Positions 57,412 through 60,388 of a stretch of 64,000 nt of DNA are shown here, in pieces. The notes under the pieces are model-generated. The model saw only the letters and a list, made by a program, of their open reading frames with translations. It ran no database searches and was not told the origin of the DNA. The DNA comes from Thermaerobacter marianensis (GTDB lineage: Bacteria; Bacillota; Sulfobacillia; DVGY01). The first letter of the stretch is position 1, and every line of letters starts with the position of its first letter. The position numbers and the translations under genes are program-made. The stretch spans positions 4,151-68,150 of the forward strand of contig DYGY01000008.1 in assembly GCA_020724425.1 (NCBI GenBank), written 5' to 3'.

Positions 57412-58062
57412 CTATCCTCCTAGGGTTATGTCTTGGTGGTTATACCATTCTAGTGCTTCATAGAAGTGTTCTTGCTTGAATTCTGGCCAGAGGTCATCAA
57501 TTACATAGAAGTCGGAATAGATGGATTGAACGGGGAGAAAGCCACTGAGTCGGCGACGGCCTCCCCAACGGATGATTAAATCCACTCTGGATATATCCCA
57601 GGAATTTAGTCCGTTTATCAGGCTGTTCTTGCTATTTATTTTCTCCATGTTTTCTAGAAGGTTTGCTAGATCCCAATACCAGCCATAGTTTACCAGGAAG
57701 TTAACTCTGATTGTAGCATCACCAAAGTTCTGACGAGTTGTGTAGGGAAGGAGATCTTTAGGGAATATTGGGCTTTGATGGTTACCTACCACTAAAAGAG
57801 AGGCTCCTTCGTTAGCTAGCATTTCTACTGCTTTGACACAGGCATCTATAAAGGCTTGTACCTGGTTACCGGGTCTCTTGGTGTTGTCTGTAGTGAAGCC
57901 GTAGTATGTCATCTCCTTTATGCCTGTTTTTTTAGCAAGTCTTAGGAGTTCTAGACCAGGATCAAGTCCTTTGCTGTAGCCTGATTCTTTAGATAGACCC
58001 TGATTTACTGCCCAGCGCCTGTTGCCATCGGGAATTATGCCTATATGATCGGGAATGCGCAT
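57412..58062 (-). CDS. Undecaprenyl-diphosphate synthase family (cis-prenyltransferase), short paralog type
   Basis: HIGIIPDGNRRWA, FTTDNTKRP, NYG, DLIIRWGGRRRLSGFLP. Confidence 0.88.
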   Translation of the reverse strand: MRIPDHIGIIPDGNRRWAVNQGLSKESGYSKGLDPGLELLRLAKKTGIKEMTYYGFTTDNTKRPGNQVQAFIDACVKAVEMLANEGASLLVVGNHQSPIFPKDLLPYTTRQNFGDATIRVNFLVNYGWYWDLANLLENMEKINSKNSLINGLNSWDISRVDLIIRWGGRRRLSGFLPVQSIYSDFYVIDDLWPEFKQEHFYEALEWYNHQDITLGG

Positions 58063-58271
58063 TGTTTGCACCTCCAAAAACTAGATATCATTTGCAAAGA
58101 TACCCAGTTGTGTGGTGGTTTATTCGTCGGGTAAGAGTTGACTGCCGATTAGCTGATGGCTCCTGTGGTTCCTTCAAAAAGAATGTCTGCTATTATAAGC
58201 AGTCTCAAAGCCTGCCACAGATGCGTACAAACCTCGTGTTGCTTAAGTAAAATACGGACTCTTTTACAAGA

Positions 58272-58421
58272 AAGTGAGATTAGAAGGGTGACATACTCCC
58301 ACCACCTACGCTAATGCTTAGAGGGGGGGGCTTCTTGGGACGTACCAACTAACGTTGATATAATTACCAAGTTAACCCCGTTTGCCCAACGGTTTTCTAG
58401 TCATATATGCTCTTTATGACT
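58272..58421 (-). ncRNA. Putative TnpB-type omega-RNA (reRNA) scaffold plus about 16-nt flank-derived guide
   Basis: AACCGTTGGGCAAACGGGGTTAACTTGGTAA...CCAAGAAGCCCC...GTATGTCAC resembles Firmicute IS605 tnpB 3'/right-end RNA; guide would be CCTTCTAATCTCACTT; boundaries approximate. Confidence 0.6.
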
Positions 58422-58516
58422 GATTATATATAGCATAACATATGTTCGGGTGTTTTCAACGAGGCAACAATTCATCCCCCACCTAAAGAGGATGGGGGAC
58501 TTCTTGTCGCATTAGG
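58288..58516 (-). mobile_element. Non-autonomous IS200/IS605-family miniature element (left end, promoter, omega-RNA/right end; no tnpA or tnpB)
   Basis: Minus strand: TTTAA target then left end with AAGT guide and hairpin TCCCCCA/TGGGGGA; right end with GAAG guide, C-rich/G-rich subterminal hairpin and terminal TCAC. Confidence 0.8.
58432..58459 (-). promoter_or_regulatory. Sigma-A-like promoter with LexA (Cheo) box-like site inside the element
   Basis: TTGAAA-N16-TATGCT; CGAACATATGTTAT overlaps the spacer and -10. Confidence 0.5.
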
Positions 58517-58909
58517 TTAAAACAGATAAACGAGGGCTACCCGGGGGCTATTTTCACAGCCGGTTCGCCTTTTTTAAGATTCATTGCAGTACAAACTAGC
58601 AACATCTGTATCATTACCTTCTTAAGACCTCTTAAAGTAGTCCACCGCGAATTATGTTATCTGTGTTCAAGTCAGGCTATCTATGCTTAACATGACAGAG
58701 AGTTTGTAGTCCTTAGATCTTTTCGTATGAAAGAATGAAGAGGCTTTAGCATATACCGGCTACTTGGTGAAGAGCTAATGAGTTGATACATTGATTGTTG
58801 GGGCTCTATGAAGAGTTCTTTTTCGTTGTATTAGGGAAGATAATAGATTATAATACTTGGCCAAAGGGCGAGGGGCGAGGTAAGAATACTCTTCTAGGAG
58901 GAAAGATTA

Positions 58910-60388
58910 ATGGCCGGATATGATGCAATTACAGGTAAAATCAAAAATTATCGCTCTCTACAGATTAAGCTAACATTGTTTATAGCTATCTACATAACAG
59001 TTTTGATTTCTGTTAGAGAAATGTCACTAGCGTTTATCAGGCAGTATTTTGCAGGAGAAGTATTTATTCTAGTTTCTACTGGTTTACTAACTGTAGTATT
59101 GGCCGGTGTTGGCGCAGGGTTAATTCTGCGTATGTTTATTTCTAATCCTCTAGGAAAACTGAGGCAGTTTGCTGAGCAGATTGGTGATAGGGATCTATCT
59201 AGCTCGGTACAAATTAGTTCTGGTGATGAATTTGAACAGCTGGCAACTGTCTTTAACGAAGTGGTACATAATTTGGGTGATTTTATGGCAGATACCAAAG
59301 GAAAGGCTCTTAGGGTAAAGAAACATAGTGATGCTTTAAGTGTTAATTCTAAAGATTCTCAGACCGTTCTTAATGAGGTTAAGTTGGCCTTAGAGGATTT
59401 TGTACAGCGAAGCTCCTTGCAACAAGAAGAGACTGAAGAAATCAGTAAATTACTTGATGAGCTTAAGAGAACGAATGAACAAACTGCAACCGGAGCGGAG
59501 AGTCAGGCTGAGAGCATGGCTGAGATGTTACAATCACTACAGACCATGGCTAGAAGTATAGATAAGATCATTGCAGATGTTGATACAGCCAGTGCAGCTT
59601 CATTAGAAGCCATTCATGATGCCAAATCTGGTAGCAGGACTATTGAAGAGTCAATCGATAGTTTTATGAATATTGAAGAGGTGGCCTTAAATGCTAGCCG
59701 TATTGTTCAGGATTTAGGTGCTAAATCAGCAGAAGTTGGTGAAATTGTATCTATTATTACCGACGTGTCTGAACAGACGAATCTTCTAGCTTTAAATGCA
59801 GCTATTGAAGCAGCAAGGGCTGGAGAGCAGGGTAGAGGTTTTGCTGTGGTTGCTGAAGAGATTCGAAAGTTAGCTGAAAAATCGAATAGGTCTGCTGCTG
59901 ATATCGCGAGAATAGTAGATGAGATTAAAAAGGGTACAGCTGATGCAGTATCAGGAATGTTTCTTGTAAATGATAAGGTTAGTCAAGGGACTTCCTTGGC
60001 TACTGATGCTCGAGAGTCTTTTGAGTCTTTAGTGAAGGCCTTAAATGATAGTGAAGAACGTTTTACCTCCATCGTTCAGATGACTAAGGGTATGGGGACT
60101 ACCATTAATCAGGCTTTAGATAGTGCTGAGCATGTGGCCGCTATAACAGAGGAGCATTCTGCAGCTACTGAAGAGATGCTTGCTTCTGCAGAAGAAGTTA
60201 GTGAAAAGACAAAAACAGTCACTGGAATTGCACAGGGGAATACGAGAAGAGTTGTGGATATGGAAAAATTACTAAAAGAAGTTGATAAGACCTTTCAGGA
60301 TATCGTTTATAAAGCTAGTGATTTGAATAACCTATCGGAGCAATTAAACAATCAGATTGAGTTATATAGGGTTGAGGGTCTCTCGTAA
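58910..60388 (+). CDS. Methyl-accepting chemotaxis protein without an extracellular sensor domain
   Basis: Two closely spaced TM helices, [39 protein letters not shown]. Confidence 0.94.

Follow-up and report, generated by a model that had tools for sequence, protein, structure and literature searches.

A gene-less IS200/IS605 derivative with a stand-alone omega-RNA scaffold in Thermaerobacter marianensis, most likely an orphaned relic

The 64,000-nucleotide stretch of the Thermaerobacter marianensis assembly GCA_020724425.1 analysed here (contig DYGY01000008.1, positions 4,151 to 68,150; hereafter the window, to which plain coordinates refer) contains, on the minus strand at 58288-58516, a 229-bp protein-less derivative of an IS200/IS605 insertion sequence (IS) with a stand-alone omega-RNA scaffold. 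We consider it most likely that this is a PATE (palindrome-associated transposable element), formed by internal deletion of an IS605-group tnpA-tnpB element, and that the copy in the window is an orphaned, slowly decaying relic. The deletion would have removed tnpA, which encodes the Y1 transposase, together with tnpB, and would have fused the two non-coding parts. On the left this would have spared the hairpin, the AAGT DNA guide, the region of the former tnpA promoter, and the leader, and on the right everything from just after the tnpB stop to the terminal TCAC, including the whole ~108-nt omega-RNA core of the ISDra2 type. A Y1 transposase acting in trans would then have spread the element to TTTAA sites. 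Any RNA that started at the former tnpA promoter and read across the scaffold into the flank would serve as a finished guide RNA against TTTAA plus flank, which is the empty site of the element itself, and could be taken up in trans by a compatible TnpB. The element offers a clean case, with sharp boundaries, of a bacterial IS605 derivative that has no genes left and retains exactly the non-coding parts, namely the transposase recognition sites, a promoter region, and a full TnpB guide scaffold. A present-day function is unsupported and, for the copy in the window, unlikely.

The boundaries of the element were established by aligning its copies together with their flanks. We searched the element's own assembly, which comprises 2,076,718 bases in 45 contigs, is 92.35% complete, and has contigs that break at repeats. 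The element matches at nine places: six full-length copies, on contigs C13 (the copy in the window), C3, C19, C35, C11, and C30, and three partial copies, on C6, C7, and C41. With a wider query, the similarity between loci ends at 58521 and 58288. All eight copies that retain the left end begin with TTTAA followed by CCTAATGC, and the sequence before TTTAA differs between loci without relatedness, except that C30 and C7 have one common flank. All seven copies that retain the right end finish at GTATGTCAC, with TCAC as the last four bases, and then diverge. There is no target duplication: TTTAA does not occur again after TCAC, and the right flanks are mutually unrelated. The two ends are not inverted repeats of each other. 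These common boundaries place the element at 58288-58516 and TTTAA at 58517-58521, outside the element, where it is the target, the left cleavage site, and the would-be transposon-adjacent motif (TAM). They also make 58272-58287 flank, which by its position would form a 16-nt guide. Read along the minus strand, the layout is thus TTTAA, then CCTAATGCGACAAGAAGT, the hairpin CCCCCA..TGGGGG, and the remainder of the element up to GTATGTCAC, followed by the flank CCTTCTAATCTCACTT.

The 229 bp have no coding capacity, with stops in all six frames, and profile searches of the own assembly placed no tnpA or tnpB match within it. Every copy lies between genes; of the six full copies, five have the orientation of the genes that flank them. 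Pairwise identity among the copies in this genome ranges from 86.4 to 100%, and the copies on C3 and C19 are 100% identical over 235 bp while lying in different flanks. Its occurrence at nine loci, two of which have identical copies in different surroundings, is evidence that a Y1 transposase acting in trans copied it there; the range of identities, including the identical pair, indicates that this mobilisation was long-lasting and continued until recently. The alignment therefore upholds the original prediction, made from the letters of the window alone, that a minus-strand element without tnpA or tnpB coding sequence runs from TTTAA to TCAC; the sibling copies that were to be sought exist, and they support the suggestion that it could be mobilised in trans. 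One pair of copies stands apart: C30:48378-48605 and C7:87399-87497 agree in the left flank and over ~97 nt at the start of the element but no further, both lying near contig ends, so that they could be two assembly versions of one locus or reflect a second insertion into a copy.

The origin of the element is evident from its relatives in other genera. A motif pattern derived from the right part, run against 185,579 species genomes, gave at least 120 matching stretches, and the matches listed fall into two length classes. Among the matches listed, 79 loci carry titles, and all but one (Cetobacterium) bear names that we take to be those of Bacillota. Many of the listed loci have a frame of 354-423 codons that ends 13-49 nt upstream of the pattern. 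A complete parent-type element of ~1.79 kb occurs in Desulfosporosinus paludis (locus L026) and consists of TTTAA, left end, tnpA, tnpB, and right end, finishing at GTATGTCAC/GTCAC. Its tnpA product has 133 aa (Y1_Tnp, 1.4e-42). Its tnpB product of 374 aa has all three Pfam domains (HTH_OrfB_IS605, OrfB_IS605, and Cas12f1-like_TNB) and aligns over its full length with the ISDra2 TnpB structures (8bf8, 8exa, 8h1j; E 5.5e-67). This locus, its counterpart in Paenibacillus mesophilus (L068), and a third locus (L023) all start after TTTAA.

Nucleotides 1-60 of the element are 90% identical to the left end of the Desulfosporosinus locus and 85% identical to that of the Paenibacillus locus. The first ~120 nt correspond to the left end, tnpA promoter region, and leader of these tnpA-tnpB elements, with homology running through the tnpA -10 box and the leader to about the tnpA ribosome-binding site. 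The last 107 nt differ at seven positions, counted on the alignment, from the Desulfosporosinus stretch directly after the tnpB stop. The right part of the element (~110 nt) is thus homologous to the region that follows the tnpB stop in full-length relatives and not to tnpB coding sequence. Both end homologies together mean that the element consists of the left and right untranslated parts of an IS605-group element minus both genes. The right part had originally been described as a scaffold resembling the 3' region of tnpB; its homology proved to lie directly behind the gene, not within it. The full tnpA-tnpB parent that was to be sought exists in other genera, and the own genome holds fragments only. 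A frame in the right part (KTVGQTGLTW, then a stop), first taken for the C-terminus of TnpB, was rejected as tnpB coding sequence because it is open for only 7-63 codons in 120 listed loci and the real tnpB open reading frames (ORFs) stop 22-49 nt upstream. Distant genera (Alicyclobacillus, Desulfosporosinus, Paenibacillus, and Lucifera) have almost the same scaffold. Metagenomes scanned for an exact 30-nt piece of the left end gave 0 matches.

The right part is a complete omega-RNA core of the ISDra2 type, including stems 1-3 and a pseudoknot, which the transposase does not need. A covariance model (R1), built only from 24 tnpB-linked scaffolds and with rough E-values owing to a shortened calibration, matches the copy in the window at 58288-58396 over model positions 1-108 of 108 (116.6 bits, E 1.1e-23). 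All six full copies in the genome match it equally from end to end, with 113-121 bits, and it also matches two partial copies and the scaffold beside a TnpB fragment on contig C1 (59.9 bits). The match ends at 58288, the last base common to the copies. The scaffold thus ends at the transposon boundary, so the guide would come from the flank, CCUUCUAAUCUCACUU. The stand-alone omega-RNA scaffold that had been proposed, together with the covariance-model match suggested as a check on it, is borne out by this end-to-end hit and by the covariation described below. In the 3' regions of the 24 tnpB-linked loci, RNAalifold predicts no conserved structure inside the tnpB frame; structure starts at CCGTN, which is the exact start of the element's right part.

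All parts of the scaffold lie on the minus strand. Stem 1 pairs 58392-58388 with 58382-58378 around the pseudoknot loop at 58387-58383, stem 2 pairs CUUGG at 58371-58367 with CCAAG at 58338-58334, stem 3 pairs 58360-58354 with 58349-58343, stem 4 is the right-end hairpin at 58330-58298, and the 3' strand of the pseudoknot lies at 58293-58290. We counted pairs in 61 distinct sequences of the short class for 19 pairs (those of stems 1, 2, and 3 and a GG/CC pair). Paired cells make up 95.3% in this structure and 82.0 +/- 0.7% in shuffles, and covariation scores 0.368 as opposed to 0.113; by either measure, 0 of 500 shuffles came as high. Sliding the partners by 1-3 columns leaves only 31-54% paired. 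The fifth pair of stem 1 occurs as UA (26), AU (22), GC (11), and CG (2); the search pattern fixed stem 2 and the 3' half of stem 1, so neither of these can vary. For the pseudoknot, in which the stem-1 loop pairs with positions -6 to -3, 94.6% of 368 cells from 92 distinct records are paired, compared with 74.5 +/- 2.0% in shuffles (0 of 2000), with L5/-6 found as C-G (60), A-U (13), and G-C (13), and L4/-5 as A-U (55) and C-G (30). Kinship among the sequences inflates all of these shuffle tests. A single-sequence RNA fold of the scaffold (z -1.15) is uninformative alone. A search of the element (58272-58521) against Rfam 15 gave no match at E up to 10, and Rfam may lack a model for this scaffold; extended to 57500-59300, the search gave one chance-level match, PK-BYV at 58889-58916 (E 4.4).

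By description, the architecture is like that of the omega-RNA of ISDra2 from Deinococcus radiodurans. According to Nakagawa et al. 2023 (PMC10097598), that RNA has a 116-nt scaffold made up of stems 1-4 and a pseudoknot of -105..-103 with -5..-3, and its 5' part from -231 to -117 is dispensable. Both have a stem 1 around the 5' strand of the pseudoknot, stems 2 and 3, and a terminal stem 4, and in both descriptions the pseudoknot pairs with bases just before the guide; the core is ~108 nt long here and 116 nt in ISDra2. Unlike ISDra2, the TAM and target is TTTAA and not TTGAT. A further difference is that tnpB in the related group (L015-L133) stops about 25 nt (range 13-49 nt) before the omega-RNA core, so that nuclease and guide scaffold do not overlap. 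A plasmid search with the parent TnpB (2439 records) had Bacillus at the top, with no Deinococcus among the 25 matches listed. Taken over more than 120 loci, the family comparison yields covarying stems, a pseudoknot, and a DNA-guide/cleavage-site pair, and with them a model of omega-RNA structure for a group of TTTAA-targeting TnpB proteins found widely in genomes with Bacillota names.

With homology and structure in hand, the possibility that this is an ordinary repeat, REP-like (repetitive extragenic palindromic) or an assembly artefact with an accidental likeness to a transposon, can be regarded as refuted. Short hairpin repeats are common in bacterial genomes, and against such an origin stand the exact boundaries of the copies at TTTAA and TCAC, the homology of both ends to tnpA-tnpB elements, the covariance-model E of about 1e-23, and the occurrence of the same repeat in contigs of independent runs.

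The ends of the element also carry the DNA signals expected from IS608. GAAG (58331-58334), the right DNA guide, precedes the right-end hairpin on its 5' side, and TCAC (58288-58291), the right cleavage site, forms the last four bases of the element, as found at all seven right ends and in tnpB-bearing relatives. Across 119 distinct right ends, the fourth base of the guide tracks the last base of the element (G with TCAC in 66, C with TCAG in 13, and T with TCAA in 26). About seven further rows that were misparsed by the regular expression fit the same rule, and about seven are true exceptions, mostly protein-less copies. The left DNA guide AAGT (58499-58502), 5' of the hairpin foot, is proposed to pair with TTAA of the target, following the IS608 pattern. 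In that element, the left cleavage site TTAC is described as paired with the guide AAAG and the right site TCAA with GAAT (PMC5934647), with a distance from site to hairpin of 19 nt at the left end and of at most 10 nt at the right end (PMC3201880). As in IS608, the tetranucleotide 5' of each hairpin here would read the cleavage site, the target lies 18 nt (in IS608, 19 nt) from the left hairpin, and TCAC ends 10 nt past the right hairpin. The right guide/cleavage pair is that of IS608 at positions 1-3 and Watson-Crick at position 4. The element differs from IS608 in its target (TTTAA/TTAA, not TTAC), in its end (TCAC, not TCAA), and in encoding no transposase. The pairing rules that had been claimed for both ends are thus supported by family covariation at the right end, GAAG/TCAC, and by analogy alone at the left end, AAGT/TTAA.

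The left-end hairpin, at 58464-58510 on the minus strand, is an imperfect palindrome with an outer stem GCGACAA/TTGTTGC and an inner stem CCCCCA/TGGGGG. Folded as single-stranded DNA it reaches -12.8 kcal/mol (z -4.33; 0 of 200 shuffles as good), so that the left-end hairpin of the original prediction is real, and strong. The C30/C7 copy has a compensatory C>T/G>A change in the left stem. A promoter-like region follows at 58423-58459, also on the minus strand, with TTGAAA (58459-58454), TATGCT (58437-58432), and TATAAT (58428-58423). TTGAAA-16-TATGCT matches the consensus at 9 of 12 positions, and a promoter scan is not above chance (4 sites per 800 bp compared with 1.9 +/- 1.4 in shuffles). 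TATAAT falls, in the alignment, on the -10 box (TAAAAT/TATAAT) that precedes tnpA in L026, L068, and L023. The promoter claimed at this place is therefore consensus-like only, and what the comparison adds is the alignment of TATAAT with the parents' tnpA -10 box. Downstream, the predicted hairpin AGTCATA-N9-TATGACT is indeed present at 58399-58421 on the minus strand, with its arms at 58421-58415 and 58405-58399; it belongs to the former tnpA leader and ends at the deletion junction. The arms are retained in C3, C19, and C35 and partly deleted in C11 and C30, and no counterpart of the hairpin was seen in the parent elements.

Several lines of evidence bear on whether this cassette still has partners. 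Y1_Tnp (PF01797) matches in the own genome only two fragments, at the contig ends of C45 and C23, which belong to a different IS200-like element with other hairpins. PF07282 (3.8e-18) and NF040570 (positions 321-381 only) match a single 67-aa C-terminal TnpB fragment at C1:22174-22377, and PF01385 (OrfB_IS605) has no match. A tblastn search of the own assembly with the parent TnpA and TnpB returned only the same fragments and nothing intact. No intact TnpA, TnpB, or TnpB-derived protein is therefore present in the 92.35%-complete assembly, an absence that is unproven for the organism as contigs break at repeats. The TnpB or TnpB-derived regulator that was suggested to be encoded elsewhere is represented in the assembly only by fragments.

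The copy in the window has five private differences from the family consensus. Among them are a G>A change at 58372, a base that is invariant in all 24 tnpB-linked scaffolds, and an A>C change at 58325 in the right-end stem. The right-end hairpin, folded as DNA, has -4.7 kcal/mol in this copy (z +0.48; 139 of 200 shuffles as good), compared with -8.8 kcal/mol in the consensus copy C3 and -9.2 in the Desulfosporosinus parent, and in this folding model the loss would be due to the A>C change. The right-end hairpin of the original prediction is thus present, and it is weak in the very copy for which it was described. Other copies have lesions of other kinds: the left guide is destroyed in C11, a G>A change breaks stem 2 in C30, the right hairpin is deleted in C6, and C41 consists of the last 62 nt only. 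This scatter looks like neutral decay. Because no intact TnpA or TnpB is assembled and the copy in the window has drifted at conserved positions, we read it as an orphaned relic that is probably inert at this locus.

Some observations weigh against that reading. All base pairs of stems 1-3 and of the pseudoknot are intact in the copy in the window, and the two private changes, whose effect is a prediction, may be tolerated. The copies on C3 and C19 are identical at different loci, and a transposase was therefore available recently. An intact tnpA-tnpB element may simply be unassembled, given the completeness of 92.35% and contigs that break at repeats. Five other genomes have similar protein-less copies; three of them hold full-length TnpB and two only pseudogene pieces, and the three show that the in-trans arrangement is common elsewhere.

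An alternative is a working cassette, in which RNA from the retained tnpA promoter is loaded by a TnpB encoded on an unassembled copy, a plasmid, or a prophage of the same organism, and in which the element is restored after excision because its empty site, TTTAA+CCTTCTAATC..., is cut. We judge this unlikely. A complete scaffold with every stem and the pseudoknot intact, a perfect TATAAT at the parents' -10 position, two identical copies that argue for recent mobility, the incompleteness of the assembly, and the trans use of stand-alone omega-RNAs described as shown experimentally elsewhere (PMC10691335) all favour it, but they have to be set against 2,076,718 bases without an intact TnpB or TnpA, substitutions peculiar to this copy at an invariant scaffold base and in its right-end stem, varied inactivating lesions among the copies that are typical of neutral decay, a poor -35 match, and a promoter scan not above chance.

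The empty site and the potential targets were also looked for. No joint that skips 58288-58516 was found in the contigs of four public runs (X5, X6, X8, and X10); the empty-site allele named in the original prediction was therefore not seen in these data. None of 40 same-class relatives, all related at class level only, holds the element. In X5 and X6, which come from two other studies, flank contigs run into the element from one or both sides, so the insertion is also present there. The summed word depth over the element in these two runs is ~6-22 times that of the flanks, a value that is not a copy number. None of the public runs listed as containing the locus is on record as RNA; X8 and X10, guessed to be RNA, consist of contigs. 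We compared seven guides with the 7347 TTTAA sites, and the best near-match has 3 mismatches in 16, the best for the guide of the copy in the window 5. Because no guide has a TTTAA-flanked near-match elsewhere and the assembly has no TnpB-like gene beyond the 67-aa fragment, a regulatory reading like that of the domesticated guides of TldR (TnpB-like nuclease-dead repressor) is unsupported.

The element could alternatively be an exapted insert, whose outward promoter or structured RNA modulates the downstream gene or which gives a TnpB-independent small RNA. It points toward a downstream ORF of 221 aa on the minus strand (57412-58077), about 210 nt away, whose start we read as UppS-like. The prevalent co-orientation of full copies with flanking genes (5 of 6) and the presence of the insertion at this locus in two further public runs from other studies are in keeping with such a role. 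IS200/IS605 insertion shows a strand bias, however, and co-orientation is also expected from it. The copies adjoin unrelated genes, the copy in the window is no better conserved than the others, and a terminator-like hairpin intervenes. We therefore regard exaptation as very improbable. The hairpin in question, CTGCTTATAATAGCAG with a T-rich run, lies between the element and the 221-aa ORF at 58187-58202 on the minus strand, where it could halt read-out from the element or form part of the leader of the ORF.

The relic can be placed among known gene-less elements. PATEs of Haloquadratum walsbyi are described as too short to encode a transposase, as lacking inverted repeats and target duplication, and as having near-terminal palindromes; they occur in multiple copies and derive from IS605-type transposons by deletion of the core (PMC3119063). 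Meers et al. report PATE-like elements in Geobacillus stearothermophilus and state that PATEs 'often encode' omega-RNAs that need the TnpB of another IS in trans (preprint 10.1101/2023.03.14.532601). Stand-alone omega-RNAs without effector or transposase that work in trans are mentioned by Altae-Tran et al. 2023 (PMC10691335), citing their own 2021 paper. The element described here has the traits of PATEs: subterminal hairpins, no terminal inverted repeats, no target duplication, no ORF, and multiple copies. It is unlike the described ones in its host lineage, its end sequences, and the lack of an assembled cognate TnpB or TnpA, and the deletion took almost exactly both ORFs out and retained both untranslated parts. 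With the stand-alone omega-RNAs of OMEGA systems (the acronym stands for obligate mobile element-guided activity) it has in common that the loci are mobilised without effector and transposase; the genomes of those also hold effector loci, whereas only a 67-aa TnpB fragment of a different subfamily is found here. These publications already cover the use by TnpB, in trans, of PATEs and stand-alone omega-RNAs, so our finding contributes one more case of a known principle.

Protein-less loci of the same build also occur elsewhere in the family. They make up 17 of the 54 loci parsed (at least 300 nt of upstream sequence, with no TnpB motif there), and six more are of the Shimazuella type. A metagenome-assembled genome of the Christensenellaceae (G041; L021, L078, L089, and L131) has at least four copies of a ~330-bp protein-less element that runs from TTTAA to GTCAC and has a promoter-like pair TTGACA/TGTGATAGAAT. 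This genome has 31 TnpB matches, nearly all broken by stops and none above the family cut-off, and is a second case of guide cassettes outliving the nuclease. For T. marianensis, one can envisage a live library of 'promoter plus single-guide RNA' genes, made when the deletion joined the former tnpA promoter straight to the omega-RNA core, and served by unassembled, extrachromosomal, or incoming TnpB and TnpA. Such a supply would account for the 100% identity of two copies in a genome whose assembled tnpA and tnpB are all broken, and, if true, guide cassettes could outlive and outnumber the nuclease in a lineage, awaiting its return; we hold it to be quite unlikely.

The genome contains other debris of insertion sequences. 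At C1:21999-22377 (L012/L014), the 67-aa TnpB fragment, made up of zinc ribbon and RuvC-III, lies between the left-end hairpin of an IS200-like element of the C45 type, which precedes it, and a longer-class omega-RNA scaffold, which comes after it, forming a nested graveyard of IS200/IS605 pieces. The IS200-like tnpA on C45:27700-27862 and C23:1-330 (L011, L010) is frameshifted and split by an element with inverted ends (GTGGTGTAAA..). Judged from its sequence, this tnpA appears to have lost the HUH region, histidines included, and the inverted-end element probably breaks the assembly in several places. Directly upstream of the PATE, at 58541-58650 on the minus strand, lies a short frame that reads ...RGLKKVMIQMLLVCTAMNLKKGEPAVKIAP and is preceded by stops. 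We take this frame to resemble the C-terminal tail of an IS1182/IS5-type transposase, and it would thus be the remnant of another insertion sequence.

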